DNA of 64,000 nt from Candidatus Latescibacterota bacterium (GTDB lineage Bacteria; Latescibacterota; UBA2968; GCA-2709665), in assembly GCA_965222075.1 (NCBI GenBank), contig OZ244937.1, positions 1,440,001-1,504,000 of the forward strand. Direction: 5' to 3'. The notes below the pieces were generated by a model. That model saw nothing but the letters and a program-made list of their open reading frames with translations. It was not told the origin of the DNA and did no database searches. Shown piece after piece: positions 10,729 through 61,700 of the stretch. Each line of letters starts with the position of its first letter. Within the stretch, counting starts at the first letter, position 1. The position numbers and the translations under genes were made by a program.

Positions 10729-13056
10729 TTACGCCTTTCCATTTCCGTCTTTGGACCACAGGGTCTCCATGATCCGGCCCGGCGACATCGGCAGTTCGTA
10801 CATCCGCACGCCGACCGCCCGGTAAACCGCATTGGCAACAGCCGCCGGGGGCGGCACAATGGGCACCTCGCCCACGCCGCGCACCCCATAGGGATGCCCG
10901 GGGTTGGGCACCTCTACAATCACCGTCTCGATCATCGGCAGGTCTAAGCAGGTCGGCATCCGGTAGTCCAGGAAGCTGGCGTTGGTCAGCACCCCGTCTT
11001 TGTTGTAAATATACTCCTCGCTCAGCGCCCACCCAACGCCCTGCGCCACGCCACCCTGCATCTGCCCTTCCACGTAGCTGGGGTGGATCGCCTTCCCCGC
11101 GTCCTGGACGATGGTGCAGCGCAGGGTATCCACCTTCCCGGTCTCCGGGTCCACCTCCACGTCCACAATCATCAACGCAAAAGCCCCGCCCGGTCCCCTG
11201 GGCGTCACCGTCGCGCGGCCCACCAGCGCAGGTCCACCCGTCTGGCCGAGCTTCCCGGCCACTTCTTTGAATGTCATCGATTTCGACGCACCTGCCTGTG
11301 CGGAGCACGCAGACAGGTCCGACCTTGACCGGACCGCGCCATCTTCGTAGACCACGTCGTCTTCCGAGATTTCCCAGAACCGGGCCGCCCGCTCGACCAT
11401 CTGCCGTTTGATATCCTGCGCCGCCTCGTAGGCCGCAAAGCCGGTGGCAAAGGTGGTGCGGCTGCCTCCGGTTCCGTCCGTATGGCCGATGGCATCGGTA
11501 TCGACCACCATCGGCGTTACCTCCTCTGCCGGAATACCCAGCGCCTCTGCAAGGTGCATCGCAATAGACGTCCGGGTGCCCCCAATGTCCGGCGAGCCTT
11601 CCACCAGGGTAACCGACCCGTCGGGATTTACGTTCGCAATCGCGACCGACGTCCCCCCGCCGTTGAACCAGAACCCCAATGCGACACCCCGCCCCCGGTT
11701 CGGCCCCTCTAACGGGGCGGTGGTGTGGGGGTGGTCCATCGCAGCCCGGATCACCTCCTCACAGCCGATGCGGGGATAGATCGGGCCGTCCGCCCGCCGG
11801 GTGCCCTCTTTGGACGCATTCGCCAGCCGGAATTCAAGCGGGTCCATGTCCAGTTCTTCGCAGATCTCGTCGATCACCGTCTCGGACGCAAACGCCGCAT
11901 TCGTAGCCCCGGGCGCCCGGTAGGCCGACGTCTGGGGTTTGTTGACCACCACGTCGTACCCATCGATCTGCGTATTCTCGATATTGTAGGGCGCAAAAAT
12001 ACAGCCTGCGCCTGCCCCGACCGGAGACCCCGGATAGGCGCCCGCCTCGTAGGCCATATACGCCTCTGCGGCCACCAGCTTTCCCTCCCTCGTCGCCCCC
12101 ATCTTCACCCGGATGTACGACGCGGGCGTTGGACCGGTGCCCTTGAGGACCTCCGTCCGGCTCATCACAAACTTGACCGGATGGCCAGTTTTTTTGGAAA
12201 GCAGCGCCGCCACAGGCTCGTGGTAAACCCGAAACTTCCCGCCGAATCCCCCGCCGATCTCGGCTGGAACCACCCGAACCCTGGCAATGGGGATGCCCAG
12301 CACATCCGCCACCTGGCTGCGCACGTCGAAAGGCCCCTGTGTGCTGCACCAGACGGTCACCCGACCGTCCGTATTCCAGAGCGCCGTGGCGTTGTGGGGT
12401 TCGATATATCCCTGGTGCACCGTCCCGGTTGTAAACTCCCGCTCGACCACCACATCCGCCTCTTCGAACCCTTTCTCAACATCTCCGAACTTGTGCTGGA
12501 AGTGGTTGGCGATATTGCTCTTCTTATCGGTCTTTTCCCCCAGCGATCTCATCATCAGGTCGTCGTGCAAAAGGGGCACATCCTCTTTCATCGCCTTCTG
12601 AACATCCAGCACCGGGGGCAGGACCTCGTAGTCGACCTCGATCAGTTCCGCCGCCTCTTCCGCGATATGGACAGAGGTCGCAGCCACAGCCGCGACCGCA
12701 TGCCCCTCATAGAGCACCTTGTCATAGGCCAGCACGTTCTTCATCAGGTTGCTCAGCGTAACGACCCCCTCGCCCACCGCTCTGACCTTGTCTTCCACAA
12801 CCCTGGCCAGGTCCTTACCCGTCACCACCGCCTTCACACCGGGGTGCGCCTCTGCGCGGCTGGTATCGATCGATTTGATCCGCGCATGCGCATGCGGGCT
12901 TCTCAACGACTTCCCGTACAGCAGACCGGCCATCTGCACATCGGCCCCATACACCGCCCGCCCCGTCACCTTGTCCGCGCCGTCGTGCCGGATGGGCCGC
13001 GTACCGACGACTTTGTAATCCGTAATTCCCAGATATTCTTCCGTCTTTGTCGCCAT
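10729..13056 (-). CDS. Xanthine dehydrogenase/CoxL-like molybdopterin-binding subunit (paralogue 1; 9-aa repeat insertion)
   Basis: [45 protein letters not shown]. Confidence 0.95.
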   Translation of the reverse strand: MATKTEEYLGITDYKVVGTRPIRHDGADKVTGRAVYGADVQMAGLLYGKSLRSPHAHARIKSIDTSRAEAHPGVKAVVTGKDLARVVEDKVRAVGEGVVTLSNLMKNVLAYDKVLYEGHAVAAVAATSVHIAEEAAELIEVDYEVLPPVLDVQKAMKEDVPLLHDDLMMRSLGEKTDKKSNIANHFQHKFGDVEKGFEEADVVVEREFTTGTVHQGYIEPHNATALWNTDGRVTVWCSTQGPFDVRSQVADVLGIPIARVRVVPAEIGGGFGGKFRVYHEPVAALLSKKTGHPVKFVMSRTEVLKGTGPTPASYIRVKMGATREGKLVAAEAYMAYEAGAYPGSPVGAGAGCIFAPYNIENTQIDGYDVVVNKPQTSAYRAPGATNAAFASETVIDEICEELDMDPLEFRLANASKEGTRRADGPIYPRIGCEEVIRAAMDHPHTTAPLEGPNRGRGVALGFWFNGGGTSVAIANVNPDGSVTLVEGSPDIGGTRTSIAMHLAEALGIPAEEVTPMVVDTDAIGHTDGTGGSRTTFATGFAAYEAAQDIKRQMVERAARFWEISEDDVVYEDGAVRSRSDLSACSAQAGASKSMTFKEVAGKLGQTGGPALVGRATVTPRGPGGAFALMIVDVEVDPETGKVDTLRCTIVQDAGKAIHPSYVEGQMQGGVAQGVGWALSEEYIYNKDGVLTNASFLDYRMPTCLDLPMIETVIVEVPNPGHPYGVRGVGEVPIVPPPAAVANAVYRAVGVRMYELPMSPGRIMETLWSKDGNGKA
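11290..11318. repeat. Short palindromic element inserted in frame in Mo subunit 1
   Basis: ACCTGCCTGTGCGGAGCACGCAGACAGGT; deleting 11289-11315 (27 nt) restores SDPSKS as in the paralogues. Confidence 0.9.
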
Positions 13057-13092
13057 TTGTGGTCTATCTCCAGGGTCTTAACCCATTTTAAA

Positions 13093-13121
13093 ACCTGTCT
13101 GCGTGCATCGCACAGGCAGGT
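13093..13121. repeat. Short palindromic element, intergenic copy in opposite orientation
   Basis: ACCTGTCTGCGTGCATCGCACAGGCAGGT; its reverse complement matches the 11290 copy except for 2 loop bases. Confidence 0.9.
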
Positions 13122-13129
13122 CCGAATTT

Positions 13130-13166
13130 CCGTAGCATGCAGAGCGTCGGCAGGGCGCCCCTACGG
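13130..13166. repeat. Degenerate GTAG-type REP-like palindrome overlapping a stop codon
   Basis: Minus strand reads CCGTAGGGGCGCCCTG...GCATGCTACGG; the TAG of GTAG is the stop of Mo subunit 2. Confidence 0.4.
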
Positions 13167-15452
13167 TCCATCCCCACCTGTGGCCCAGAGCGCCTCCAGA
13201 ATCTGCCCCGGAGACATCGGCAGCACCTCCATCCGCACGCCGATCGCCCGGTAAATCGCATTGGCAAGCGCCGCCGGAGGAGGGACAATGGACGCCTCGC
13301 CTACGCCGCGCACCCCGTAGGGATGGCCCGGATTGGGCACCTCTACAATCACCGTTTCGATCATCGGCAGGTCCAGGCAGGTCGGCATCCGGTAATCCAG
13401 CAGGCTGGCGTTGGCCAGTTCCCCTCTTTCGGTGTAGAAATACTCCTCGTTCAGCCCCCACCCGATGCCCTGCGCCGTCCCGCCCTGCATCTGCCCTTCT
13501 ACGTAACTGGGGTGAATCGCCTTCCCCGCGTCCTGGACCATAGTCACGCGCAGAATATCAACCTTGCCGGTCTCCGGGTCCACTTCCACATCCACGATCA
13601 TCATCGTAAAGGATCCGCCCACCCCCTGTGGATCAACGGTCGCACGCCCCATCAACGGCCCGCCCGTTTGATTAAGCTTGCCTGACAACTCTTTGAACGA
13701 CAGAGATTTCGACGGATCAGATTTGGACCTGAACGTGCCGTCTTCAAATGCTACGTCATCCCCGGAGATCTCCCAGAATGTGGCGGCCCGCTCCACCATC
13801 TGCCGGATGATATCCTGCGCTGCTTCGTAAGCCGCCCAGCCGGTGGCGAAGGTCACGCGGCTACCGCCAGTGACGTCCGTCTCCCCCACCCCGTCGGTAT
13901 CCGCCACGACCGGCTTCACGTCCTCCACCGGGATGCCCAGCGGCTCGGCGAGCTGCATCGCCACCGACGTTCGCGTGCCGCCGATGTCGGTCGAACCCTC
14001 CACCAGGCTGACCGTACCGTCCGTATTCACGCTGGCGCTGGCGCTGGACTTCAGCCCCACGTTGAACCAGAAGCCGGACGCCACTCCCCGGCCCCGGTTC
14101 GGCCCCTCTATGGACGACCTGTAATGGTCGGATGCCATCGCCGCCTTCACCACCTCCTCGTGCCCGACCCGGGGGAAGGTCGGCCCATCCGCCCGGCGCG
14201 TGCCCTCCTTCGCCGAGTTCATCAGCCGAAACGCCAGAGGTTCCATCTCCAGCTGCTCGCAGATCTCGTCCACCACCGTCTCCGACCCAAACGCCGCATT
14301 GGTCGCGCCCGGCGCCCGGTAGGCCATCGTCTGCGGTTTGTTGACCACCACATTGTAGCCTTCGATCAGTATGTTCTCAATATCGTAGGGCGAAAAAATA
14401 CACATCGCCCCCGGCTCCGCCCAGCCGCCCGGGAACCCGCCCGACTCGTAGGCCAGATAGGCCTGTGCGGCCACCAGCCTGCCATCCTTTTTCGCTCCCA
14501 TCTTCACCCGGATATACGACCCCGGGGTCGGTCCGGTCGCCTTCAACACTTCGTCCCGGCTCATCACCATCTTCACCGGCCGGCCGGTCTTCCCTGACAG
14601 CAGCGCCGCAACAGGCTCCAAATAGACCCGGATCTTCCCGCCGAACCCCCCGCCGATCTCTGTGGGAATCACCCGCACGTTCACCACCGAAGTCTGGAGC
14701 AGCGCCGCCACCTGCTCACGGACCGTAAACGCCCCCTGGGTGCTGCACCAGACCGTCAGCCGCCCGTCCGGGTTCCACAGCGCCGTGGCGTTCTGCGGCT
14801 CGATATACCCCTGGTGCACAGTACCGGTTTGAAACTCCCGTTCGACCACCACGTCCGCCTCTTCAAATGCTTTCTCAACATCTCCGAATTTGTGCTGAAA
14901 GTGGGTGGCGATATTGCTCACCTTGCCGGTATCTTCGCCCAGGGACTGGGTGATCAAATCTTCAATCAGAAGCGGCGCATCCTCCGCCATCGCCTCCCGC
15001 ACGTCCAGCAGTGGCGGCAGCACCTCGTAGTCCACCTCGATCAGTTCCAGGGCCTCTTCGGCGGTGTGCGGGTCGGTGGCCGCCACCGCCGCCACCGCGT
15101 GCCCTTCGTAGAGCACCTTGCCGTCGGCCAGCACGTTGGCGCGCAGGTACAGGATATTGGTGGGACCCTCGCCCAACTCCACAATCGCCGACTCCGGAAC
15201 GGGGATATCCGCGACCGTCACCACGGCCCTCACCCCCGGGTGCGCCTCGGCCTTGCTGGTATCGATCGACTTGATCCGGGCGTGTGCATGGGGGCTGCGC
15301 AACACCTTCCCATGCAGCAGGCCGGCCATCTGCACATCGGCACCGTAGATCGCCCGCCCCGTTACCTTGTCCACCCCGTCGTGCCGGATCGGCCGGGTGC
15401 CGATCACCTTATAGTCTTCAATCCCCAGATAGTCTTCAGTCTTGGCCGCCAT
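13161..15452 (-). CDS. Xanthine dehydrogenase/CoxL-like molybdopterin-binding subunit (paralogue 2)
   Basis: Same motif set: [27 protein letters not shown]. Confidence 0.95.
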
Positions 15453-15457
15453 CGGTT

Positions 15458-15934
15458 CTATCCCTCCATCGTCTGGGCCGCATCCTGTACGGCCTGGACA
15501 ATTTTATCGTACCCGGTGCAACGACACAGATTGCCTGCCAGCCAGAGGCGGATCCGGTGTTCGGACGGATTCGGCTCCCGCTCCAGCAGCGCCTTTGCCG
15601 CCACGATAAACCCCGGCGTACAGATGCCACACTGAAGCGCCGCGTGTTCCAGGAACTTCTGCTGCAGCGGGTGCAGCCCCTCGGGGCTGGCGACCCCCTC
15701 GATCGTTGTGATCTCGCTCCCCTGCGCCTCCACCCCCAGCACCAGGCAGGAATCGACCACACGCCCGTCCAGGATTACGCTGCAGGCCCCGCAGTTACCG
15801 TTGCTGCACCCCTCTTTTGTGCCGGTCAGCCCGAGGGTATCCCTCAAGACCTCTAAGAGCGTCTCCCGGGGTTCACACAGGAGATCGACATCCTCACCGT
15901 TAATTTTGGTCTCTACGTGTACTTTGCCAGGCAT
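15458..15934 (-). CDS. (2Fe-2S)-binding small subunit, CoxS/CutS family
   Basis: [16 protein letters not shown]...SC; QCGICTPG; GNLCRCTGY. Confidence 0.96.
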
Positions 15935-15957
15935 TGATCCAGACTCCTTTGCTCGTT

Positions 15958-16833
15958 TTAAGACGCCTGTGCACGTTCAATAGCGCCCCTGATCGCTCGC
16001 CTGGTCAGCACGCCGGTCAGGTGCTTCCGCTGTTCCACGGTGCCGCGCATATCGCTAATAGGCCGGGCGGCCTCCCTCGCGATCTCCGCCGCCCTCTCAA
16101 CCGCCTCATCGGAAATTCCGTTCCCGGCCAGGGCCTCTGCGGCCTCCGACAGAAATAGGGGGATTGGCGCCACCGCGCCCACGGCAATCCGCGCAGACGC
16201 AACCCTGTTCTTGTCCTCATTCAGGACCACCGACGCGGCTGCGTTTACCACCGCGATATCCATCTCGTTCCTCGGAATGAACCGGAGGAAGAACGCCCCG
16301 GAATTGGGCTGCGGCGGTGGGATATGCAGCGAAACCAGAAACTCTCCGCTCTCCAAGACCGTCTGTCCGGGGCCCGTGCAGAAATCCTCAACCGCCACCT
16401 CCCGCCTGCCGTTGGGACCTGCAATCTGCGCCACTGCTCCAAGGACGATAATCGACGGAACCGTATCCGCCGCCGGAGAGGCATTGCACAGGTTGCCGCC
16501 CACCGTTGCGCGGCTCTGGATCTGAATCGACCCGATCAGCGACGTTGAATCCACCAGCGCCGGATAGGCCGCCGCGATGGCTTCATCCTCGTAAATCCGG
16601 CAGCAGGGCACCCCGGCGCCCAGTTGAAGCCCGTTCTCGGAATCGTAAGACAACGCGTTGGCCTCGGGGATCTTTTTGACGTCCACAAGAATATTCACCC
16701 GGAGCCGCCCCTCCTGGAGCTGTGCGATAATGTCGGACCCTCCGGCCAGCAAGCGGGCCTGATCGCCGTGTTCTGAAAGCAGCGAAACCACCTCATCGAC
16801 CGATTGGGGAGCCGCATAGTCAAATGCGTGCAA
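15958..16833 (-). CDS. FAD-binding medium subunit, CoxM/CutM family
   Basis: LLAGGSD, IQSRATVGGNLCNASPAAD, PISDMRG. Likely TTG start at 16833 with AGGAGG RBS. Confidence 0.95.
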   Translation of the reverse strand: MHAFDYAAPQSVDEVVSLLSEHGDQARLLAGGSDIIAQLQEGRLRVNILVDVKKIPEANALSYDSENGLQLGAGVPCCRIYEDEAIAAAYPALVDSTSLIGSIQIQSRATVGGNLCNASPAADTVPSIIVLGAVAQIAGPNGRREVAVEDFCTGPGQTVLESGEFLVSLHIPPPQPNSGAFFLRFIPRNEMDIAVVNAAASVVLNEDKNRVASARIAVGAVAPIPLFLSEAAEALAGNGISDEAVERAAEIAREAARPISDMRGTVEQRKHLTGVLTRRAIRGAIERAQAS

Positions 16834-16897
16834 GGCAATTCCTCCTATCGTTTTGGGAGATAAATGCGTCAAAAACCTGCTTTGGCCTTCGAGCACA

Positions 16898-16926
16898 AGA
16901 ATACGATTTCTCAACAACGCTGTCAA
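16898..16926 (-). promoter_or_regulatory. sigma70 promoter of the M-S-L-L-moaD operon
   Basis: TTGACA-17 nt-TATTCT on the minus strand, about 65 nt upstream of the start. Confidence 0.75.
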
Positions 16927-20484: not shown

Positions 20485-20526
20485 GAAAAAAACGGCCAGC
20501 GATTGAACCCTCAACCGCTGGCCGTT
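20485..20526 (-). terminator. Intrinsic terminator after Mo subunit 3
   Basis: AAAAAAACGGCCAGCGATTGA-accc-TCAACCGCTGGCCGTT; homologous to the 10398 hairpin. Confidence 0.8.
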
Positions 20527-20575: not shown

Positions 20576-22882
20576 TCACGTCTTCCCGTTCCCACCCTTG
20601 CCGTTCTCGGACCAGAGGGCCTTCAAAATCCGTCCCGGAGACATTGGCAGTTCGTTCATCCGCACCCCGACTGCCCGGTAGATCGCATTGGCAACCGCCG
20701 CCAGCGGCGGTATAATGGACGCCTCACCCACCCCTCGCGCCCCGTAGGGGTGGCCCGGATTGGGCACCTCCACAATCACCGTTTCGATCATCGGCAGGTC
20801 CAGGCAGGTCGGCATCCGGTAATCCAGCAGGCTGGCGTTGGTCAGTTCCCCTTTCTCGTTGTAGATATACTCCTCGTTCAGCGCCCACCCGATGCCCTGC
20901 GCCATCCCGCCCTGCATCTGCCCTTCCACATAGCTTGGATAGATCGCCTTCCCTGCGTCCTGGATCATAGTCGCACGCAGGATATCCACCTTACCGGTCT
21001 CCGGATCGACTTCTACGTCCACAATCGCCTGGGTAAAAGACGCGCCCGCACCCCTGGGTTTCACGCTTGCACGCCCCATCACAGGTCCACCTGTCTCATC
21101 AAGTTTCCCCGCCATCTCTTTGAACATCAGGAATTTGGATGGATCGGACCTGGACTGAAAGACCCCATTTTCAAATTCCACATCGTCCTCGGAAATCTCC
21201 CAATAGAGGGCCGCCCTCTCGATCATCTGGCGCTCGACATCCTGCGCCGCCTCGTAGGACGCCCAGCCGGTGGCGAAGGCGGTGCGGCTGCCCCCCGTGT
21301 TGCCGGTATACGCGATCGCGTCGGTATCGGGCACGCTCGGTTTCACATCCTCCGCAGGGATGCCCAGCACCTCGGCAAGCTGCAATGCGCAGGCCGTCCG
21401 GGTGCCGCCGATGTCCACCGAGCCCTCCACCAGACTCACCGTCCCGTCGGCATTCACGCTCGCACAGGCGCTTGAAATACCCCCCCCGTTGCCCCAGAAC
21501 CCCGACGCCACCCCCCGGCCCCGGTTCGCTCCCTCCAGCGGGGTCTGGTAGTGGTCGCTTTCCATCGCCGCCTCCAAAACCTCCTCGTGCCCGACCCGGG
21601 GATAGACCGGCCCATCGGCCCGCCGTGTGCCCTCCTTCGCCGAATTTTTGAGCCGGAACGCCAGTGGGTCCATCCCCAGTTGCTCACAGAGTTCGTCGAT
21701 CACCGTCTCCGACGCAAACGCGGCATTGCTCACCCCGGGGGCCCGGTAGGCCGAGGTGGACGGCTTGTTGACCACCGCCTCATAGGCATCGATAAACACA
21801 TTCTCGATCGTGTAGGGGGCAAACATACAGCGTGCCCCGGCGCCCACCGGGCACCCGGGAAAGGCCCCCGCCTCATAGGCCAGGTAGGCGTATGCCGCAA
21901 CCAGCTTCCCCTCCCTGGTGGCCCCTATCTTCACCCGAATATACGACCCCGACGTAGGTCCGGTTGCTTGCAGCACCTCCGTTCGGGACATCACCAGCTT
22001 TACGGGATGTCCCGTCTGTTTGGAGAGCAACGCGGCCAGAGGCTCCAGATACACCTTGATCTTCCCGCCAAACCCGCCGCCGATCTCGGCCGGAACCACC
22101 CGGACTTTAGAGACCGACATATCGAAGAGCCTGGCTACCTGGTCCCGCACGCCAAACGCCCCCTGGTTGCTGCACCAGATGGTGAGGTGGCCGTCCGGGT
22201 TCCACAGCGCCGTGGCGTTCTGGGGCTCGATATACCCCTGGTGGACCATCCCGGTCTTAAACTCGTGTTCAACCACCACGTCCGCCTCTTCAAACCCCAC
22301 CTCTATATCGCCCAGTTTGTGCTGAAACTGCTGGGAAATATTGCTCACCTTCTCGGTCTCGGTACCCAGCGATCTGGTCGTCTGGTCTCCATGCAGGAGC
22401 GGCGCGCCGTCCGCCATCGCCTCTCGCACGTCCAGCACCGGTTCGAGAACCTCGTAGTCCACCTTGATCGATTCCAGCGCCTCTTCGGCCACGTGAGGAT
22501 TGATGGCCGCTACCGCCGCCACCGGGAACCCCTGGTAGAGCACCTTGTCGGTGGCCAGCACGGCGGCGAAGAGATGCTTCAGCCGGACAATCTCTTCACC
22601 CAGGTCCTCCACCTTGTCTTCGAAGGCGCGAATGAAATCCTGCCCCGTAATCACGGCCTTGACTCCCGGATGGGCCTCCGCGCGGCTGGTGTCAATCGAT
22701 TTGATCCGGGCATGCGCATGGGGGCTTCTCAACACCTTCCCGTGCAGCAGCCCCGCCATTTGCACGTCCGCCCCGTAGATCGCCCGCCCCGTCACCTTAT
22801 CCATGCCGTCGTGTCGAATCGGACGGGTCCCAACAACCTTGTAGTCTTCAATCCCCAGATACGCTTGGGCCTTCGTCGCCAT
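20576..22882 (-). CDS. Xanthine dehydrogenase/CoxL-like molybdopterin-binding subunit (paralogue 3, stand-alone)
   Basis: Starts [16 protein letters not shown] like the other two paralogues; AYRAPG, RGVGE. Confidence 0.95.
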   Translation of the reverse strand: MATKAQAYLGIEDYKVVGTRPIRHDGMDKVTGRAIYGADVQMAGLLHGKVLRSPHAHARIKSIDTSRAEAHPGVKAVITGQDFIRAFEDKVEDLGEEIVRLKHLFAAVLATDKVLYQGFPVAAVAAINPHVAEEALESIKVDYEVLEPVLDVREAMADGAPLLHGDQTTRSLGTETEKVSNISQQFQHKLGDIEVGFEEADVVVEHEFKTGMVHQGYIEPQNATALWNPDGHLTIWCSNQGAFGVRDQVARLFDMSVSKVRVVPAEIGGGFGGKIKVYLEPLAALLSKQTGHPVKLVMSRTEVLQATGPTSGSYIRVKIGATREGKLVAAYAYLAYEAGAFPGCPVGAGARCMFAPYTIENVFIDAYEAVVNKPSTSAYRAPGVSNAAFASETVIDELCEQLGMDPLAFRLKNSAKEGTRRADGPVYPRVGHEEVLEAAMESDHYQTPLEGANRGRGVASGFWGNGGGISSACASVNADGTVSLVEGSVDIGGTRTACALQLAEVLGIPAEDVKPSVPDTDAIAYTGNTGGSRTAFATGWASYEAAQDVERQMIERAALYWEISEDDVEFENGVFQSRSDPSKFLMFKEMAGKLDETGGPVMGRASVKPRGAGASFTQAIVDVEVDPETGKVDILRATMIQDAGKAIYPSYVEGQMQGGMAQGIGWALNEEYIYNEKGELTNASLLDYRMPTCLDLPMIETVIVEVPNPGHPYGARGVGEASIIPPLAAVANAIYRAVGVRMNELPMSPGRILKALWSENGKGGNGKT

Positions 22883-22987
22883 GGTGTTTTTCCTCCGTAA
22901 CGAGCGCTTTTTCGACACGGTTGGAGACCATCTCGACCTTGTAATGCAGGAAACGCCAACCCCACGAGCGGGCCGTCATATCCCGGT

Positions 22988-23221: not shown

Positions 23222-23349
23222 AGGCTAACCCCCGGGGGACGAGGCAACGACGATTAGGAAAACAGACGGGGGAGAAACTGGGAAAATGCTACGGTGAAAG
23301 ACAAGAAACGAAAAAAACAGGCCAAACGCCAGCAGAATTTGAAGCGGCG

Positions 23350-23386
23350 AGGCAGGCGCAGGCAGGCGCAGGCAGGCGCAGGCAGG
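23350..23386 (+). repeat. Tandem 10-bp repeat (AGGCAGGCGC)x3.7
   Basis: aggcaggcgc aggcaggcgc aggcaggcgc aggcagg; the unit contains the right arm of the palindrome family. Confidence 0.9.
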
Positions 23387-23530
23387 TAACCCTGCGATTT
23401 GTCTACCCTGGAAGAACCAGCGGGGGATGACCTATCGTGAGATTACACAAACGATCTTGCAGGGAGAGGTCGTTGATCAGAGCCCGAATGCTTCCCCCCA
23501 CCCTGGCCGATCCCGGTTCAAAATCATCGA

Positions 23531-30674: not shown

Positions 30675-30695
30675 GCCTGCCTGCTGCAGGCAGGC
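30675..30695. repeat. Short palindromic element (minimal form)
   Basis: GCCTGCCTG-CTG-CAGGCAGGC. Confidence 0.85.
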
Positions 30696-30702: not shown

Positions 30703-31605
30703 TCAGACCACGTCTTCCCAGGAGTCTTCGGCGTGCACCCGTTGTTTAAAAAACCGGCGCAGTTTTCCCAGGGCCCGGTTGCGGATCTGGCGCACCCGCT
30801 CACGCGTCACACCCAGGTTCGCCCCGATCTCTCCCAGGGTGTGCCGCTCCTGGCCGTCCAGCCCGAAATAGGCCCGAATCACCTCTGCCTCCCGGCTGTC
30901 CAAGCTGCCGATCAGCGATTCGTTGACCAACTCCAGGCGATCCCGTTCCAGAACATGCAAATCGGGCTCCGGCTCTTCTACCTGGAGGATCTGGAGCAGC
31001 GTCTGCTCTCCAGCCGGATCCATCGGAGATTCCAGCGAAAGGTCGGAACGGACACACCGAAGTGCGCGTTCCGCACGCTTCCGGCTGATCTTCATGTCGG
31101 TGGCCACTTCGTCCAGCGTGGGCACCCGGCCCAGTTCCTGCGTCATCTGCCCCCAGCGCCTCGCCATCCGGTCCATGTCTTCCTGACGATTGGCCGGCAT
31201 CGAGACCGTCGAGGTCCGCTTCAGGGCGTTCAGAATGGCCTGGCGGATCCACCAGACCGCATAGCTGATGAACTTATACCCCCGCTTCTCATCAAACCGC
31301 TTAAGGGCCTCCATCAACCCCATGTTTCCCTCTGCAATCAGGTCCGACAGGGGCACCCCACGGCCCTGGTATTCTAAAGCGACACTGACCACAAAGCGCA
31401 GGTTGGAGGTAATCAACCGTTCAATGGCCCTGGCATCCCCTTTCCGGGCACGCCGCAGGGTCTTTTCTTCCTCCTTGCGGCTCATCGGAGGGTACTTGCG
31501 CAATTCCTTCAGATATCGCTGCACGGAAGCATCGTGTGCAGAACGCGTCTGAACCGTATCGTTCGAATCCATATCCAGCAACGACTCCTCTCGGATTTCT
31601 GTCAT
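30703..31605 (-). CDS. RNA polymerase sigma-70 factor, RpoD/SigA family lacking region 1.1
   Basis: SNLRFVVSVA, DLIAEGNMGL, GYKFISYAVWWIRQAI, TLGEIGANLGVTRERVRQI; ATG 31605 with GGAGGTGA RBS. Confidence 0.95.
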   Translation of the reverse strand: MTEIREESLLDMDSNDTVQTRSAHDASVQRYLKELRKYPPMSRKEEEKTLRRARKGDARAIERLITSNLRFVVSVALEYQGRGVPLSDLIAEGNMGLMEALKRFDEKRGYKFISYAVWWIRQAILNALKRTSTVSMPANRQEDMDRMARRWGQMTQELGRVPTLDEVATDMKISRKRAERALRCVRSDLSLESPMDPAGEQTLLQILQVEEPEPDLHVLERDRLELVNESLIGSLDSREAEVIRAYFGLDGQERHTLGEIGANLGVTRERVRQIRNRALGKLRRFFKQRVHAEDSWEDVV

Positions 31606-31621
31606 CTCATCACCTCCTGGC

Positions 31622-31642
31622 ACCTGCCTGCTGCAGGCAGGT
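31622..31642. repeat. Short palindromic element (minimal form) next to the sigma RBS
   Basis: ACCTGCCTG-CTG-CAGGCAGGT. Confidence 0.85.
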
Positions 31643-31710: not shown

Positions 31711-31739
31711 GCCTGCCTGCGTCCCCCGGACAGGCAGGC
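31711..31739. repeat. Short palindromic element (long form)
   Basis: GCCTGCCTGCGTCC-CCC-GGACAGGCAGGC. Confidence 0.85.
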
Positions 31740-32128: not shown

Positions 32129-32299
32129 CTGGTTTGACATGGTGGGACATACAGGATTCGAACCTGTGACCTCTGGTTCCGGAGACCAGCGCTCTATCCA
32201 GACTGAGCTAACCCTTCTGGTTTGACATGGTGGGACATACAGGATTCGAACCTGTGACCTCTGGTTCCGGAGACCAGCGCTCTATCCAGACTGAGCTAA
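32121..32299. repeat. Perfect 88-bp tandem duplication covering most of tRNA-Arg
   Basis: 32121-32208 is identical to 32209-32296; the units are bounded by TAA microhomology. Confidence 0.95.
32140..32211 (-). pseudogene. 5'-truncated copy of tRNA-Arg(CCG)
   Basis: Identical to the intact gene but the 5' acceptor strand GGGGCAT is replaced by GAAGGGT, so the acceptor stem is disrupted. Confidence 0.85.
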
Positions 32300-32305
32300 T
32301 GCCCC
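32228..32305 (-). tRNA. tRNA-Arg(CCG)
   Basis: GGGGCAT/ATGTCCC acceptor; anticodon arm CTGGT-CTCCGGA-ACCAG; GGTTCGAATCC; CCA encoded. Confidence 0.97.
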
Positions 32306-33565: not shown

Positions 33566-33883
33566 ATGGATATTCAGAACATCATTCAAGCTATAGAATC
33601 GCAACAATACCGCATCACTGATCATGCAGATGAAGAAGCTCAATCGGATCAGCTGAAGTTTGAAGAAATATTCTATTCCGTACGCAATGGCGAAATTATT
33701 GAAGATTATCCAACGGATCATCCCTACCCAAGCTGTCTGATATATGGTTCAAATGCAGAAGGAGCACCCATACATAGTGTTTGGGCCTACAATGAGGCGA
33801 ATCAATGGGCAGTTTTGATCACAGTTTACTGCCCTGACTCAACACGTTGGATAAATTGGCGTGAAAGGAGAAAGGATTTATGA
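33566..33883 (+). CDS. DUF4258 domain protein (predicted toxin)
   Basis: ITDHADEE...GEIIEDYP..PYPSCLIYG...PIHSVW...LITVY.PD...W. Confidence 0.88.
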   Translation: MDIQNIIQAIESQQYRITDHADEEAQSDQLKFEEIFYSVRNGEIIEDYPTDHPYPSCLIYGSNAEGAPIHSVWAYNEANQWAVLITVYCPDSTRWINWRERRKDL

Positions 33884-34125
33884 AGCCATTTGATCAATGC
33901 CCGGTATGTGGTGGCGAACTTGGAGAAAAAGAGGTCGAGAAGGTTTTACGAGGCGGGAATCATACTGCAATCTTAACCGTTCAAGCTGAAGTTTGTCTGC
34001 ATTGTGGTGAACGTCTTTATACGCCGGAGGCTATAAACCGTTTTGAGGAGATTAGATCAAAATTAGAACGGGAAGAAATCGCCGATTTTCAACCTGTTGG
34101 TCAAGCCTTTCAAGTAACACCATAG
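33880..34125 (+). CDS. YgiT/MqsA-type zinc-finger protein (predicted antitoxin)
   Basis: CPVCGG...VCLHCGERLY; ATGA overlap with the DUF4258 stop. Confidence 0.88.
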   Translation: MKPFDQCPVCGGELGEKEVEKVLRGGNHTAILTVQAEVCLHCGERLYTPEAINRFEEIRSKLEREEIADFQPVGQAFQVTP

Positions 34126-41362: not shown

Positions 41363-41406
41363 GCCTACCTGCGTCCGCCTGTCTGCAACAGGCAGGACAG
41401 GCAGGC
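41363..41406. repeat. Nested palindromic elements (one inside the loop of another)
   Basis: Outer GCCTACCTGCGTCC...GGACAGGCAGGC (compare 31711); inner CCTGTCTG-CAA-CAGGCAGG. Confidence 0.8.
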
Positions 41407-52962: not shown

Positions 52963-52965
52963 CAC

Positions 52966-53000
52966 GCCTGCCTGTGCGTGTGCCACGCACGCAGACAGGT
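52966..53000. repeat. Short palindromic element (long form) just after a stop codon
   Basis: GCCTGCCTGTGCGTG-TGC-CACGCACGCAGACAGGT. Confidence 0.9.
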
Positions 53001-55413: not shown

Positions 55414-55613
55414 CTCGCACCTCCGGAGATTGACTTCACCACAGGAATGGAATTCGGTATCGCTTACAATATAGGCGTCTATTCTGCCCAGCGCACTTAA
55501 AAAAAACACAAGCAGCGGAACCTGAGCCCTTTCCACGGGTCCTATACTTGGTTATATTTAAAGGTGAAACGCTACCATCGTCCTCTTACAAAAATAGGGC
55601 TTCTTTGTCAGTG

Positions 55614-55970
55614 ATGTTCTCTTGCTTAAAAAAATGTTCCGCCCTCTTCCTGAGCCTGGCCGTGCTGCTGGCGGGCGTAAACTGTTTCTGCTGGGCGCAG
55701 GTTGCTGCGCAGACCTGCCATGCCCCGGCAAAGATGTCGGACTGCTGCTGCGGTGAAGAGGGCGAAGTGACGGACGACACCTCCGACCTCCCTCCAATGC
55801 TCCTTCCGCCGGCTCCCAAACTGCCGGGTCCTGAGATCTGCGCAGACGTTCAATGCTCCCTTCCCCACCTTTCCAGTCCTCTCCATGTCCGGCAGGCGGA
55901 AACCACTCGCATCGCCTCCTCACGCGCTTCTCCTGTGCTCTATATTCTCAACGCCTCTTTCCTCATCTGA
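55614..55970 (+). CDS. Cys-rich exported small protein / putative metal-responsive leader ORF
   Basis: Signal-like N-terminus, NCFC, TCH, DCCC, Pro-rich linker, C-terminal RASPVLYILNASFLI; first gene before the efflux operon. Confidence 0.7.
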   Translation: MFSCLKKCSALFLSLAVLLAGVNCFCWAQVAAQTCHAPAKMSDCCCGEEGEVTDDTSDLPPMLLPPAPKLPGPEICADVQCSLPHLSSPLHVRQAETTRIASSRASPVLYILNASFLI

Positions 55971-56114
55971 TTCCCTCCTGTGGACGTCCCTGTTCAGGAC
56001 GTTCTCTGCCTATTTTTCCCGTTTTCTTATTTCCGAAATCTTCAGAAGTGTAGACACGCATCCCGTCAGAGGCCTTTTCTCTTGGCATGGATGCAGACGA
56101 GGAGATCGTACACC

Positions 56115-57386
56115 GTGAACAGTTTCAAAATGGCCCTCCGGGCAGGGTGCTTCCTCACGGCCTTCACCACAAGCTTCGCGGGCGCTGAAGCGCTCAACCT
56201 GAAAGCGCTGATTGACGAAGCGCTTGCGAACAATCCGGAACTGACCGCCCTGAAGAGCCGGTGGGAGGCGTTTGAGACGCGGGTGCCCCGGGCAGGGGCA
56301 TTGAACGATCCGACGCTTCGGCTCGACGCAATAAACCTGCCCACAAGTACATTCGACTTCAACACTACGCCAATGTCGGGAAAATCGGTCATGTTCAGCC
56401 AGCAGATCCCCTTTCCGGGCACGCTGGCAGCCAGGGAGCGGATGGCGAGACACGCGGCAGCATCGGCCCGGGAAATCTATCGGGACCGGGAAGGCGTGAT
56501 TGTGAACATGGTCAAGCAGGCCTACTTCAGCCTGGCGTTTTTTGACCGATCGATCCGGATCACGCAGAAAAACAAGGCATTGTTGAAGGACTTCATCCGA
56601 ATCGCCCAGACGAAATACGCGGTGGGCCGCGGTCTGCAGCAGGATGTGCTTAAAGCCCAGGTGTCGCTATCGGGGTTGATGGACCGATTAATCAAGCTCA
56701 GGCGGATGCGACGGACGGCCGAAGCGCAGCTGAACCTGGTGCTCAACCGGCCCCCACAAGCGCCGGTCGGTGCCCCGGATGGGGTGACCCTGACCCCGCT
56801 GGCGCTGTCCCTGGAAGCGATCCGGCAGGCCGCGCTGGAAAACCGCCATCTGCTGAAAGGGATCAACCAGACCATCCAGCAGTGGGCAGCGGCAAAAGAG
56901 GCTGCCCGCCGGCAGCTCTGGCCGTACTTCACCTTCACCTTTGGCTACCGGCAGCGGGCGTTTATGCCCACAGACCCGGTGAAAGGCAGCGATTTTCTCT
57001 CCTTCGGCGTGGGAATAAGCCTGCCGATCTACCGGGGGCGCAAGCAACACCAGAAAGTAGCCGAGGCGCAGGCCAACATCCGGATGGTCGAAGCGCAGCA
57101 CGAGGCGGCCAGGCAGCGGGTGCTTTTCCAGGTGCAGACGATCTACCTGGAGATTGGACAGCATAGGGAAGAGGCGGAGTTGTTCCGGACCGCCATCTTA
57201 CCCCAGGCGGAGCAATCTCTCCGATCCGCGGCGGCCGGCTACCAGGTGGACAAGGTCGACTTTCTGACCCTGTTAAACAATCAGGTCACGCTTTTCAATT
57301 TCGAAATCGACTACTACCGGCATGTGACAGAACACGAAAAACAACTGGCGGACTTAGAAGCGGTCGTTGGAAAGCGGCTTTTTTAA
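56115..57386 (+). CDS. TolC family outer-membrane efflux protein (CusC-like)
   Basis: ALANNPEL, QQIPFPG, GRGLQQDVLKAQ, YQVDKVDFLTLL; GTG 56115 after GGAG. Confidence 0.92.
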   Translation: MNSFKMALRAGCFLTAFTTSFAGAEALNLKALIDEALANNPELTALKSRWEAFETRVPRAGALNDPTLRLDAINLPTSTFDFNTTPMSGKSVMFSQQIPFPGTLAARERMARHAAASAREIYRDREGVIVNMVKQAYFSLAFFDRSIRITQKNKALLKDFIRIAQTKYAVGRGLQQDVLKAQVSLSGLMDRLIKLRRMRRTAEAQLNLVLNRPPQAPVGAPDGVTLTPLALSLEAIRQAALENRHLLKGINQTIQQWAAAKEAARRQLWPYFTFTFGYRQRAFMPTDPVKGSDFLSFGVGISLPIYRGRKQHQKVAEAQANIRMVEAQHEAARQRVLFQVQTIYLEIGQHREEAELFRTAILPQAEQSLRSAAAGYQVDKVDFLTLLNNQVTLFNFEIDYYRHVTEHEKQLADLEAVVGKRLF

Positions 57387-57401
57387 CCAGGGGGTGGTCC
57401 T

Positions 57402-58682
57402 ATGAAGACCAAACAGAGCATAGTGGTGATTCTGGCCCTGGGAGTTGGATTTGCCACAGGGGTCTGGATGGGAGGAGACCATGGAACAGGACACGAAGCG
57501 ACAGAAGCGGCGACCTACCGATGTCCGATGCACCCGACCGTGGTCTCGGAAAGGCCGGGGAGTTGCCCGATCTGCGGGATGGACCTGGTGGCGGACAAAA
57601 CGCACGGGGAAGCTCACGTATCCGGCGAACGCAAAATGGAAAGCGGAAGGGGCGTGAAGATCGACCCTGCGACAGTGCAGAACATCGGGGTGAAGACCGC
57701 GGTGGTAGAGCGGCAGCCGCTGGTCCGCACGGTGCGCACCGTGGGGCGCGTGGACTACGACGAGACCCGAATGACCGATGTGAACACCAAGGTCACCGGC
57801 TGGGTGGAACGATTGTTTGTGGACTACACTGGACAGATGGTAAAAAAGGGACAGCCGCTTTTGGAGATCTACAGTCCCGAACTTGTGGCTGCCCAGGAGG
57901 AATACCTGACGGCCCTGGACTACAACCGGCGGCTGATGGAAAGCGCCTCCGAGGAGATTGCGGCAGGGGCGCTTGACCTGCTCAGATCGGCCAGACAGCG
58001 GCTTCTCTACTGGGACATCACCGAAGAACAGATTGCCGAACTGGAGCGCACCCGGCAGGTCAAGCGGACGATGACCCTCCACTCCCCGCAGCAGGGCGTG
58101 GTCGTCCACAAGGACGTATTCGATGGGGCGCACATCAAAGCCGGCCAACACCTCTACCGGATCGCCGACCTCTCCCGGGTCTGGGTCTACGCCCACATCT
58201 ACGAGTACGAACTGCCCTGGATCAAGATGGGACAGGAAGCGGAAGTGGAACTCTCCTACGAACCGGGAAAGACCTTCCGGGGAAAGGTGACTTACGTCTA
58301 CCCCTTCTTAGAGTCGAAGACGCGGACGGTGAAGGTGCGGATGGTATTCCCAAACCCCGGGATAAAGTTGAAACCGGAGATGTATGCCAATGTCAAAATA
58401 AAGCCTGTCGTGTCCCGCAACGCGGTCGTCGTGCCGACGCAGGCGGTGATCCGTTCCGGGACGCGCAACGTGGTCATTCTGGACCTCGGCGAGGGCCGCT
58501 TCCTGCCCCGGGAGGTCGTGCTGGGCGTCGAAGCGGAGGGGGTCACCGAGGCCATCAAAGGCCTGGCGGAGGGGGATCGGATCGTGACGTCGGCGCAGTT
58601 CCTGATCGATTCGGAGAGCCACCTGAAGGCGGCGCTGGCCACGATGGGCGGGGATCGGTCGGAAGCGGGACATCAGCATTAG
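57402..58682 (+). CDS. cusB: CusB-like RND periplasmic adaptor with heavy-metal-binding domain
   Basis: YRCPMHP...CPICGMDL, IYSPELVAAQEEY, KPEMYA, FLIDSES. Confidence 0.9.
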   Translation: MKTKQSIVVILALGVGFATGVWMGGDHGTGHEATEAATYRCPMHPTVVSERPGSCPICGMDLVADKTHGEAHVSGERKMESGRGVKIDPATVQNIGVKTAVVERQPLVRTVRTVGRVDYDETRMTDVNTKVTGWVERLFVDYTGQMVKKGQPLLEIYSPELVAAQEEYLTALDYNRRLMESASEEIAAGALDLLRSARQRLLYWDITEEQIAELERTRQVKRTMTLHSPQQGVVVHKDVFDGAHIKAGQHLYRIADLSRVWVYAHIYEYELPWIKMGQEAEVELSYEPGKTFRGKVTYVYPFLESKTRTVKVRMVFPNPGIKLKPEMYANVKIKPVVSRNAVVVPTQAVIRSGTRNVVILDLGEGRFLPREVVLGVEAEGVTEAIKGLAEGDRIVTSAQFLIDSESHLKAALATMGGDRSEAGHQH

Positions 58683-58724
58683 GCCCCCTCCCCTTGTGGG
58701 GAAGGAGGGTCAGAGGGTTAGATC

Positions 58725-61700
58725 GTGCTCAACCGAATCATCGAAGCAAGTCTCCGTAACCGTTTCCTGATCGTCCTTGGAACGTTGTTCGCCATTGGGT
58801 GGGGGATCTACGCAGTGTGGAACACCCCCTTAGACGCGATTCCGGACCTGTCGGACGTGCAGGTGATTATCCTTACGGAGTATCCCGGGCAGGCGCCCCA
58901 GGTGGTGGAAGACCAGATCACCTATCCGTTGACCACCGCGATGCTGGCGGTGCCCTTTGCCAAGGCCGTGCGGGGCTACTCCTTTTTCGGGCTGTCGTTC
59001 GTCTACGTCATCTTCGAAGACGGCACGGACATGTACTGGGCGCGCAGCCGGGTGCTGGAGTACCTCAACTTCGTCTCGGGCCGCCTGCCCGGGGGCGTCA
59101 CCCCCTCGCTCGGTCCGGATGCGACGGGCGTGGGCTGGGTCTACGAATACGTTCTGGAGGACACCACGGGGAAACACGACCTGGCCGAACTCCGCTCAAT
59201 CCAGGACTGGTACCTGCGCTACGAACTGACCGGTGTGCCCGGTGTGTCGGAGGTGGCCAGCATCGGCGGCTTTGTGAAACAGTACCAGGTCACCGTGGAC
59301 CCGAACAGGCTGCTGGCCTACAACATCCCCCTGCAGAAGATCCGGACGGCAATCCGGCGCAGCAACAACGACGTGGGGGGACGGTTGATCGAAATGGGCG
59401 AGACGGAATTTATGGTGCGCGGCCTGGGCTACATCAACTCCCTGGACGACATCCGCAGCGTTCCGGTCGGCGTGGACGCCGGTGGGACGCCGATCCGGGT
59501 GCGGGACATCGCCACCGTACAGCTTGGGCCGGAACTGCGGCGGGGGCTGGCCGAGTGGAACGGACAGGGAGAGGTCGTCGGCGGCATCGTGGTCATGCGC
59601 TACGGAGAAAATGCCTTAGCCGTGATCGACCGGGTAAAAGAAAAGATCGAATCTCTCAAACCCGGTCTGCCCGAGGGCGTGGTCATCCGAACCGCCTACG
59701 ATCGGTCGGCATTGATCCTGCGGGCGATCGACAATCTCAAGGGAAAACTGATCGAAGAGAGCGCGGTGGTGGCCCTCGTCTGCATCCTCTTCCTGCTCCA
59801 CTTACGCAGCGCCTTCGTGGCAATCGTCACCCTGCCCGTGGGCATCCTGATCTCCTTTGCGATCATGCACAACCAGGGGATCAACGCGAACATCATGTCC
59901 TTAGGCGGCATCGCCATCGCCATTGGAGCGATGGTGGACGCGGCCATCGTCATGATCGAAAACGCGCACAAACACATCGAACGGGATGCGGGAAAAAAGG
60001 ACCACTGGGAGATCATCCTGGACGCCTCTAAGGAAGTGGGACCGGCGCTGTTCTACTCCCTGCTGATCATCACCCTCTCCTTCCTGCCGGTCTTCACGCT
60101 GCAGGCGCAGGAGGGCAGGCTGTTCAAACCCCTGGCGTTTACCAAAACCTACGCGATGGCCGCCTCCGCGCTCCTGGCGATTACGATTGTGCCGGTGCTG
60201 ATGGGCTTCTTCATCCGGGGCCGGATTCTGCCTGAGCGCAAGAACCCGATCAACCGACTCCTGATTCGGATCTACCGGCCCGCGATCGACTGGGTGCTGC
60301 GTCACAAGATCGCCACCATCGTCCTGGCCGGCCTTATGCTGTTTGTCACCGTCTTTCCGTTCGGGAGCATGGTCCTGTCCCACTTTTCCGACCTGCCTGT
60401 GCGCCGCACGCAGACAGGTCACCTCCAAAGCCTGAGCTACCGTGCCCTGGTGAAAGTAGACCGGCTTTTTCCTTTAGAGAAGATCGGCTCGGAGTTTATG
60501 CCCCCCCTCTACGAAGGCGACCTGCTCTACATGCCCACCACCCTGCCCGGCATCTCCGTCACAAAGGCCCGGGAACTCCTGCAGCAAACCGACAAGATCA
60601 TCCGCACCTTCCCGGAGGTACACCACGTATTCGGGAAGATCGGGCGGGCGGAAACGGCCACGGACCCGGCCCCTCTGTCCATGATCGAGACCACGATCAT
60701 GCTCAAGCCGGAAAGCGGGTGGCGGCCGGGGATGACGCCGGAAAAGCTGGTGGACGCCCTCAACGAGGCCATCCGGTTCCCCGGCCTGACGAACGCCTGG
60801 ACGATGCCAATCAAAACCCGGATTGATATGCTTTCAACCGGCATCAAGACCCCGGTGGGGATCAAGGTTGCAGGGGACAACCTGGAGACACTGCAGCGGT
60901 TGGGCAAACAGATCGAAGACGTGGTGCGGAACCTGCCGGGCACCCTGAGCGTGTTCGCCGAGCGGGTGGTCGGCGGGAACTACCTGGACTTTGAAATCGA
61001 CCGGGAGGAGGCCGCACGCTACGGGCTTACCGTGGGAGACGTGCAGGACATCATCATGTCGGCCGTAGGCGGCATGAACATCACCCACACCGTGGAGGGA
61101 CGGGAGCGATACCCGGTGAACCTGCGCTACGGCCGGGAACTGCGGGACAACCTCCCGGCGCTGCGCCGGGTGCTGGTGCCCACGCCCATGGGAGCGCAGG
61201 TACCGATCGGACAGCTTGCGGCTATCCACATCCGGAAGGGCCCGCCGGGCATCAAGAGTGAAAATGCCCGCCTGAATGCCTGGGTCTACGTGGACATCAA
61301 GAACATCGACGTGGGGACCTACGTGGGACGGGCGCAGCAGGCGGTGCTGGAGCACGTGCAGATGCCGCCCGGCTACACCGTGATCTGGAGCGGGCAGTAC
61401 GAGTATATGCAGCGGGCTGAGAAGCGGTTGAAAGTGGTCGTCCCCGTAACGTTGGGAATCATCTTCCTGCTGCTGTTCCTGAACTTTCGGAATGTAGTCG
61501 AAAGCCTGATCGTCATGCTTTCCCTGCCCTTCGCGCTGGTCGGTGGCATCTGGCTCATGTACCTGCTGGACTACAACATGAGCGTGGCCGTAGGGGTAGG
61601 CTTTATCGCATTGGGCGGGGTGGCCGCAGAGACGGGGGTGATCATGCTGATCTACTTAGACCACGCCTACGAGGCGATACGCCGCGAAAAGGGCGCCCGG

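Follow-up and report, generated by a model that had tools for sequence, protein, structure and literature searches.

A Very Small Palindromic Element Inserted in Frame into Bacterial Genes and Shared among Many Phyla: A Candidate REP-Like Mobile Hairpin

A family of very short hairpins was found in a 64,000-nucleotide stretch of DNA, termed the window here, from a Candidatus Latescibacterota bacterium (assembly GCA_965222075.1, contig OZ244937.1, positions 1,440,001 to 1,504,000), where most copies lie between genes and two lie within them. The latter two, one in a molybdopterin-binding subunit of the xanthine dehydrogenase/aldehyde oxidase family (Mo subunit 1) and one in a CusA-type efflux pump, are discrete insertions of 27 nucleotides (nt). 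Together with the copies collected from other genomes, they show discrete insertion without target duplication, a preference for certain flanking bases, entry into several gene families and a wide taxonomic spread. The explanation toward which we lean is that the hairpin represents a very small, non-autonomous element resembling the repetitive extragenic palindromes (REPs) and moved in trans, for which a HUH enzyme of the TnpA-Y1 type is the most plausible agent. An original prediction, made from the letters of the window, had proposed a minimal element mobilised in trans by an enzyme; the discrete in-frame units are recovered below and prove absent from paralogues and close orthologues, and the enzymatic step is one that we infer.

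Discrete In-Frame Insertions in Two Genes of the Window

The copy at 11291-11317 encodes the nonapeptide LSACSAQAG, which corresponds to residues 581-589 of Mo subunit 1. Two paralogues of this protein are encoded in the window (13161-15452 and 20576-22918), both of which, being 74 and 73% identical to it, are devoid of LSACSAQAG, and comparison at the DNA level with either of them leaves the 27-nt palindrome as the sole difference at the site. The nine columns are likewise empty in all 116 aligned homologues. At the site, the closest of these, P0122, which comprises 766 amino acids (aa) and shows 95% identity across the searched region, has the sequence RSRSD|ASKSMTF, and excision of the 27 nt from the window gives GAT GCG TCG, matching the D-A-S of P0122. 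In an AlphaFold2 model of the subunit, with a mean predicted local distance difference test score (pLDDT) of 84 and a predicted template modelling score of 0.86, the insert forms a coil between helix 578-582 and strand 593-595; its pLDDT falls below 50 at residues 584-589, and the flanking ten-residue blocks average 88 and 89.

The second coding copy, read on the plus strand at 60392-60418, encodes LPVRRTQTG, residues 557-565 of a protein whose homologues are named CusA/SilA by the database sources. This peptide is missing from 49 of the 50 aligned homologues, among which P0005, 92% identical, reads SDHP-QSL at the site and the sole carrier, P0004, is identical to the window protein in the searched region. 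When 121 CusA proteins were compared, LPVRRTQTG was confined to P0001-P0004, that is, to the window's own lineage. With a mean pLDDT of 59, the structure model of CusA is too poor to place the insert in a surface loop; the expectation that the added peptides fall in such loops finds support in the low-confidence coil of the Mo model.

Both coding copies measure 27 nt, lie in opposite element orientations and introduce neither a stop nor a frameshift, and both genes are intact, precisely as had been predicted for the two peptides. The empty sites and the possible target duplication that the original prediction suggested looking for were compared at these two coding copies: orthologues without the insert were found for each, and no target duplication is visible at either. 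At each site the bases at the two junctions differ (A|C and G|T), which speaks for the absence of a duplication and fixes the boundaries within one base.

Insertions in Other Gene Families

Beyond the window, a copy lies within the gene of an IS256-type transposase (locus L103), whose best homologue, P0362, shows a single 9-residue gap, and another within the PglZ protein of a BREX-3 system (L080). The hairpin nonapeptide is present in 15 of the 120 listed PglZ homologues at four different sites, three of which read LSACxAQAG and the C-terminal one LPVRGTQTG. In a FastTree phylogeny of 113 full-length PglZ proteins, calculated with the inserts cut out, 5 gains or losses are required at site 1, and insert carriers stand beside insert-free sisters on well-supported branches. 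The pattern at this site could have arisen through several insertions into a single target, through precise loss of the insert or through allelic recombination. Inserts of 9 aa are seen in Mo, CusA, PglZ and the IS256-type transposase, extending to further gene families and phyla, in agreement with the idea that coding insertions are multiples of three, and insertion in frame into functional open reading frames (ORFs), known as a trait of the Rickettsia palindromic elements (RPEs), is found here as well.

As a single case, a hairpin occupies part of the last 20 codons of an ISCR/IS91-family (HUH Y2) transposase ORF in another outside locus (L031, 9433-10971).

Anatomy of the Hairpin

A core form is common to the copies at 11291, 13094, 52967 and 60392 and can be written as CCTGTCTGCGTGC-loop-GCACAGGCAGG on one strand. 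Folded as DNA, it comprises an 8-bp outer stem with a T.G position, a 2-nt CG bulge and an inner stem of 3 to 6 bp, closed by a loop of 3 to 5 nt in the core window copies and of 3 to 8 nt in the family as a whole. The outer stem, CCTGYCTG/CAGRCAGG, usually contains one T.G, the CG bulge is located on the 5' arm, and the total length is mostly 27 or 30 nt. Exact complementarity between the two arms is never seen, which gives the element a defined strand, referred to as the T-form. At 31712 the inner stem is a different one (TCC/GGA), but the 8-bp outer stem and the CG bulge are retained, and a near-identical relative of this copy occurs in a Latescibacterota locus (L033), which indicates that the architecture, and not the letters alone, has been kept.

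Copies in the Window

The window contains eight matches to the pattern CCTGYCTG-N{3,19}-CAGRCAGG, whereas 100 shuffles that preserve the dinucleotides give 0.01 on average and in no case as many as 8; the bare octamer occurs 29 times, where 4.67 +/- 2.21 are expected and the largest shuffle gives 10. All eight loci of the original prediction therefore exist at a frequency far above composition, including the nested pair, and only the starts it gave require amendment, which lie within one base of the true ones and are one base low (Table 1 lists the true starts, that of the inner member of the pair being 41378).

Table 1. Hairpin copies, their host genes and related features of the window
Feature	Position	Strand	Context or basis
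Xanthine dehydrogenase/aldehyde oxidase family molybdopterin-binding subunit (Mo subunit 1, host gene 1), 775 aa	10729..13056	-	Pfam Ald_Xan_dh_C, MoCoBD_1, MoCoBD_2
27-nt hairpin, CCTGTCTGCGTGC-TCC-GCACAGGCAGG on minus strand	11291..11317	-	pattern match; inside Mo subunit 1
27-nt hairpin, canonical on plus strand, loop ATC	13094..13120	+	intergenic, between two Mo-subunit genes
Tandem 3'-arm-like units, GAGGCAGGCG then repeated CAGGCAGGCG	23349..23386	+	end of a 31-aa highly basic ORF (23294-23389)
19-nt perfect palindrome CCTGCCTG-CTG-CAGGCAGG	30676..30694	.	8 nt past the stop of the sigma-70-family gene
Sigma-70-family gene	30703..31623	-	bracketed by two identical 19-nt palindromes
19-nt palindrome, same sequence as the 30676 copy	31623..31641	.	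just upstream of the sigma-gene ribosome-binding site and ATG
27-nt variant CCTGCCTG-CG-TCC-CCC-GGA-CAGGCAGG	31712..31738	.	intergenic, further upstream of the sigma-70-family gene
Nested pair, inner CCTGTCTG-CAA-CAGGCAGG at 41378-41396, outer CCTGCGTCC...GGACAGGCAGG	41363..41405	+	intergenic
33-nt hairpin, canonical arms on minus strand, inner stem longer by 3 bp	52967..52999	-	intergenic, 850-nt spacer
CusA-type heavy-metal resistance-nodulation-division (RND) efflux pump (host gene 2), 1079 aa	58725..61964	+	Pfam ACR_tran, two stretches split at about residue 547
27-nt hairpin, canonical on minus strand	60392..60418	-	inside CusA

Judged against the Pfam-annotated ORFs, two of the eight copies are situated within intact genes and six are intergenic; the eight measure 19 to 33 nt, fold at -4.5 to -14.4 kcal/mol (DNA parameters) and are all bounded by a purine | pyrimidine junction. 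A predominantly extragenic position and the form of a dispersed imperfect palindrome of 20 to 40 bp are thus shared with the REPs. The nested pair, which is located in the divergent promoter region between an accD-like gene and a LysR gene, folds as a single two-tier hairpin at -14.4 kcal/mol, and a single loop base separates the 52967 copy from the 33-mers of two Latescibacterota loci (L016 and L017).

The intergenic location of six window copies, the two identical copies that bracket the sigma-factor gene, a copy upstream of rpoH in an outside locus (L036) and the apparently invariant arms would suit a motif selected by the host, namely a DNA or RNA hairpin that is bound by a conserved protein, as a terminator, an mRNA stabiliser or a nucleoid or gyrase site, and that is not mobile. 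This explanation is nevertheless distinctly unlikely, given that unrelated ORFs are interrupted in both orientations, that close orthologues lack the copies, that no gene family is consistently near them in the loci examined and that their flanks are unique. No Rfam match was obtained either, the whole window yielding only 4 tRNAs at the gathering threshold and two hairpin copies searched at E up to 10 giving only chance-level matches; as for a terminator, the palindrome at 30676-30694 stands ahead of what reads in the sequence as a separate T-run hairpin.

Several further features were observed beside these copies. The three Mo-binding paralogues are gathered within 12 kb, two of them adjacent, beside genes for 2Fe-2S and FAD subunits (15458-16926). 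Two near-identical 36-nt hairpins with a 4-nt loop (10401-10436 and 20491-20526, AACGGCCAGCGATTGA / TCAAYYGCTGGCCGTT) are located downstream of two Mo paralogues and constitute either a second small repeat family or part of a duplicated gene segment. Hairpins near sigma genes were encountered repeatedly, as in the bracket of 30676 and 31623, at rpoH in L036 and upstream of a gene for an extracytoplasmic function (ECF) sigma factor in L043, which may be coincidence. Finally, 33566-34125 encodes a likely toxin-antitoxin pair, consisting of a DUF4258 protein and, after it, an MqsA-like zinc-ribbon protein; with its lower G+C of 0.53 and its place just past two tRNA genes (32143-32305), this stretch may be a small integrated island.

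Occurrence outside the Window

When the 24 arm bases, separated by a gap of 1 to 15 nt, were sought by exact matching in one genome per species (596 Gb), at least 120 loci were returned, where about 0.06 would be expected by chance on our own arithmetic. Among the loci listed, 119 are bacterial and 1 is archaeal, and titles and taxonomy name at least 24 phyla, including Latescibacterota, Thermodesulfobacteriota, Verrucomicrobiota, Planctomycetota (with anammox genera), Nitrospirota, Pseudomonadota, Bacillota and Methylomirabilota, together with two Patescibacteria; the window itself is not among these loci. The Latescibacterota matches include complete chromosomes, for example OZ241917.1, OZ244744.1 and OZ250150.1. 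This occurrence of the same arms across phyla was not part of the original prediction. The G+C content of the host DNA ranges from 28 to 71%. The element possibly extends to bacteria of the candidate phyla radiation (CPR) and to an archaeon as well, and single short contigs among the matches from metagenome-assembled genomes may be mis-binned, the archaeal contig being 3.8 kb long.

Most of the loci listed derive from metagenome-assembled genomes, which might be taken to favour an assembly or library artefact in the contigs. Such an origin is scarcely credible, however, since a complete Brocadia genome, several long-read chromosomes and short-read assemblies are all represented, the CusA insertion recurs in three further database entries (P0002-P0004), and the copies are in frame, nested and target-specific.

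Long flanks were available for 80 of the at least 120 loci. The loci of at least 9 kb hold 70 hairpins in 816,037 nt, most of which are the copy that led to the locus; the density in the Latescibacterota loci, 3 to 4 hairpins per 20 kb, resembles that of the window, and most other genomes contain little beyond the copy found by the search. Between the window and the outside loci, the synteny comparison gave no megablast match and distant protein matches only.

The low density of about one copy per locus in most genomes would be expected if the hairpins were relic repeats, scattered by an element that is now inactive here and carried along passively with host genes through transfer or recombination. 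The lack of an enzyme in the ORFs scanned points in the same direction, and BREX genes are frequently transferred, which can be counted for this explanation of the patchy PglZ pattern. It is still rather unlikely: the insertions in Mo subunit 1 and CusA are younger than the split from orthologues that are 95% and 92% identical, the nested copies record repeated rounds of insertion, and very different genomes share identical arms and at times an identical complete 27-mer, one such sequence being present in 20 copies, a uniformity that is difficult to reconcile with decaying relics.

Properties of the Outside Copies and Their Insertion Sites

The scan provided 125 distinct copies outside the window. 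Their lengths are predominantly 27 nt (61 copies) and 30 nt (38), followed by 33 nt (6), 36 nt (5) and 39 nt (2), so that 112 of the 125 are a multiple of three; the remainder measure 29 nt (7), 28 nt (3), 26 nt (2) and 31 nt (1). These lengths are not independent observations, as the four most frequent sequences account for 51 of the 125 copies and one 27-mer sequence for 20 of them. The arms are free of stop codons in all six frames, each of which was seen open among the copies. Twenty-one of the 125 lie in the longest open frames scanned, few of which have a coding context supported by Pfam.

Read in T-form orientation, the flanks of the 125 copies are clearly biased, with C (55) or T (36) at -2, G (66) or A (41) at -1, C (106) at +1 and A (49) or G (41) at +2. 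The consensus is YR^CR, where Y denotes a pyrimidine and R a purine, with A^T in the coding cases of the window; the dinucleotides are not duplicated, and no fixed tetra- or pentanucleotide is present at the insertion point beyond this degenerate preference. The tetranucleotide GTAG was absent within 8 nt on either side of all 125 copies, consistent with the missing GTAG signature stated earlier for the window; CTAC occurs there once, and CGTC/GACG gives 12 scattered matches. A conserved unpaired GT[AG]G or CGTC tag, such as stands at the foot of REPs, is accordingly not found in the 125 copies.

The two flanks of a copy often pair with each other. Folding of flank to flank reached -10 kcal/mol or lower in 24 of 123 copies, about four times the 5.6 expected from randomly re-paired flanks. 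About half of these cases are copies nested in another copy, in either orientation and mostly at GTG^C next to the loop; in the remaining cases, the element sits exactly at the tip of an unrelated hairpin.

A longer repeat around the hairpin was looked for, and the flanks proved mostly unique, three Brocadiaceae copies sharing only about 45 nt. In three Brocadiaceae loci (L014, L026 and L071), CATAAATAAAATGAAAATYC comes directly after the hairpin each time, and a short CAGGATnAACAGGAT-like motif stands directly beside the hairpin in loci of different phyla, namely L016, L081, L041 (3' flank), L040 (5' flank) and L056. These shared neighbours suggest that in some genomes the hairpin belongs to a repeat of slightly greater length. 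At L061 (5160-5250), four 5' arms and two 3' arms are arrayed in the C-terminal tail of a RecJ-like ORF, as though copies had entered other copies without a change of orientation.

Such arm arrays, the tandem CAGGCAGGCG array at 23349-23386 and the composition of the arms from 4-mers (CCTG TCTG CGTG) raise the alternative that the hairpins are made in situ by replication slippage or template switching on short repeats of the CCTG/CAGG type. The array at 23349-23386, whose units resemble the 3' arm, may be related to the hairpin family. An origin in situ is very improbable, because at least 120 loci, including DNA of 28 to 34% G+C, share 24 identical bases and one asymmetric bulge, and because the empty sites hold no CCTG repeat from which the process could start.

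Search for a Mobilising Enzyme and Proposed Mechanism

The element enters DNA as one discrete piece, in either orientation and without target duplication. The cut falls between a purine and a pyrimidine, and the site is often a further copy or the tip of a hairpin already present. Since the arms are free of stops and the length is mostly a multiple of three, an insertion in a gene would add 9 to 12 residues, and it would survive where these fall in loops; the majority of surviving copies lie between genes. The use of both coding orientations and the opening of all six frames point to an action at the DNA rather than the RNA level. An enzyme acting in trans would recognise the folded single strand; at a guess, this mover is a HUH tyrosine transposase of the TnpA-Y1 (IS200/RAYT) kind, RAYT standing for REP-associated tyrosine transposase, operating by precise cut and paste. 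A single-strand enzyme of the HUH class is suggested by the missing target duplication, the conserved asymmetric bulge and mismatch, the insertion at hairpin tips, the use of both orientations and a possibly precise gain or loss. Either this enzyme or the copies themselves may have spread horizontally between phyla. According to PMC6006769, TnpA-Y1 genes are patchy and horizontally spread, and their classes 2.6 and 3 go with motifs lacking GT[AG]G, which makes such an enzyme a plausible candidate.

A gene of this kind flanked by clusters of the repeat, for which the original prediction recommended a search, was not found in the window or among the neighbours scanned; its statement that no transposase lies in the window was confirmed for the ORFs covered. 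The neighbour scan was performed with NCBIfam on 138 ORFs within 1.5 kb of copies from the first 45 long loci (L001-L046, with the exception of L011 and L017), and a cognate tnpAREP (RAYT) gene flanked by hairpins was found neither among these nor among the window ORFs. Small unannotated ORFs beside hairpin clusters (L016, L033 and L042) and in the window showed no nuclease or transposase domain. One candidate, a PD-(D/E)XK_3 / GxxExxY gene, occurs in 3 loci and lies near a copy only in L056, and was set aside as a coincidence.

A number of observations weigh against the view that the hairpin is a REP-like element moved in trans. With respect to the enzyme, no transposase domain was detected with Pfam in 65 ORFs of the window or in 11 small ones, nor was a Y1/HUH domain found in those scanned; the 138 neighbour ORFs (89 others fell outside the scan) comprised housekeeping genes plus one ISL3 transposase, one ISCR/IS91 transposase and one GxxExxY protein, and an all-against-all BLASTP of 2,566 ORFs from the loci disclosed no neighbour gene recurring across loci, its clusters being generic (response regulators, GGDEF proteins, ABC ATPases, histidine kinases and dehydrogenases). 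With respect to the route of spread, none of 72,556 plasmids gave a full-length match (73 records match over about 20 to 30 nt only) and none of 50,697 phages gave a match, so that no vector emerged from either set. With respect to the copies themselves, no strand bias is visible among the 5 oriented copies of the window, all 125 outside copies were picked by exact arms and thus cannot serve to measure arm conservation, the bias toward multiples of three may reflect a few master copies, and the patchy PglZ pattern could stem from recombination between alleles instead of re-insertion. Departures from the known systems have to be added. Single REP hairpins are generally regarded as immobile, with movement ascribed to doublets (REPINs), and most copies of the present element stand singly; the cut sites of IS200/IS605 enzymes lie a few bases away from the foot of the hairpin, and here the ends coincide with the foot; and the same arms in at least 24 named phyla are at variance with the lineage specificity of REPs. 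Ends at the stem foot, singletons and invariance across phyla are not typical of a REP/RAYT system.

A bolder formulation, that the 27-nt hairpin, with its essentially invariant arms, is the smallest mobile DNA yet observed in prokaryotes, active in more than 20 phyla, inserting at YR^YR and hairpin tips, perhaps excised precisely, harmless to all six reading frames, furnishing proteins time and again with 9-residue loops and driven by a horizontally spreading single-strand DNA enzyme or by host replication and repair, is conceivable, and we put it forward with considerable doubt.

Relation to Known Systems

Two publications (PMC3733652 and PMC6006769) already describe small palindromes of REP size within ORFs, among them GTAG/CGTC REPs including Rickettsia RPE-4 and RPE-6 (PMC3733652) and REPs inside tnpAREP genes (PMC6006769), so the original prediction overstated its case in that the insertion of tiny palindromes in frame is not new in itself. 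The same publications report CGTC REPs without a known transposase (PMC3733652) and REP families that are each specific to one tnpAREP gene and lineage (PMC6006769). Like the REPs and REPINs depicted there, the hairpins are dispersed and imperfectly palindromic, fall in the size range of 20 to 40 bp and lie mainly between genes; they occasionally reside in ORFs without breaking the frame, contain bulges and G.T pairs and cause no target duplication (PMC3733652, PMC6006769). They differ from REPs in that they have no GTAG/CGTC tag, end at the stem foot, are mostly singletons rather than inverted doublets and are accompanied by no REPtron in the ORFs scanned.

With the RPEs they share the insertion of palindromes in frame into functional genes, where a peptide is added, RPE-4 and RPE-6 being REP-sized CGTC elements (PMC3733652). 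RPEs are confined to Rickettsia, whereas the hairpin occurs in at least 24 named phyla among the matches listed; the sequences are regarded as unrelated, no direct comparison having been made. RPE-1 is far longer than the hairpin, and RPE-1 to RPE-8 are sequence families specific to Rickettsia.

Elements of the IS200/IS605 family, which move as single strands by 'peel and paste', and their miniature derivatives, the palindrome-associated transposable elements (PATEs), resemble the hairpin in their imperfect hairpins recognised on one strand, precise excision and insertion, lack of target duplication and short sequence preference beside the insertion point. IS200/IS605 elements have two different subterminal hairpins with offset cut sites and measure at least about 100 nt, whereas here, in contrast to them and to PATEs, a single 27-nt hairpin is the whole element. 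A wide, patchy distribution by horizontal transfer is a further likeness to the IS200/IS605 family (PMC6006769). Unlike a miniature inverted-repeat transposable element (MITE) of the DDE type, filled and empty sites differ by the 27-nt palindrome alone, with no direct target-site duplication.

Among organelles, the GC clusters of yeast mitochondria and double-hairpin elements are very small repeated hairpins, likewise with no known mover, which enter coding sequence and leave the frame open, and coding palindromes tolerated in frame have reportedly been observed in the mitochondria of Nematomorpha. Those GC-rich palindromes are, however, organellar, restricted to lineages and unrelated in sequence.

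The arm strings and six encoded peptides had no match in the literature searched, although supplementary tables of REP consensus sequences, which lay outside that search, could hold a relative; nor did the literature searched report a palindromic repeat family with invariant arms over many phyla. The element works like a REP or an RPE but departs from the REPs in tag and lineage and from the MITEs in target duplication.

Implications

If the hairpin is indeed such an element, mobile DNA could be as small as one 27-nt hairpin, and a single family of it would extend across much of the bacterial tree, which would imply an unrecognised and very widespread single-strand DNA enzyme or host process. 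The hairpins would likewise supply enzymes, transporters and phage-defence proteins with peptide loops in nature; the four independent sites in PglZ suggest that this protein is a hot target or that variation from this source is tolerated. From a practical perspective, they could mislead gene callers and alignment-based annotation, and the 24 bases of the arms would provide a marker of recent horizontal contact between uncultured lineages.

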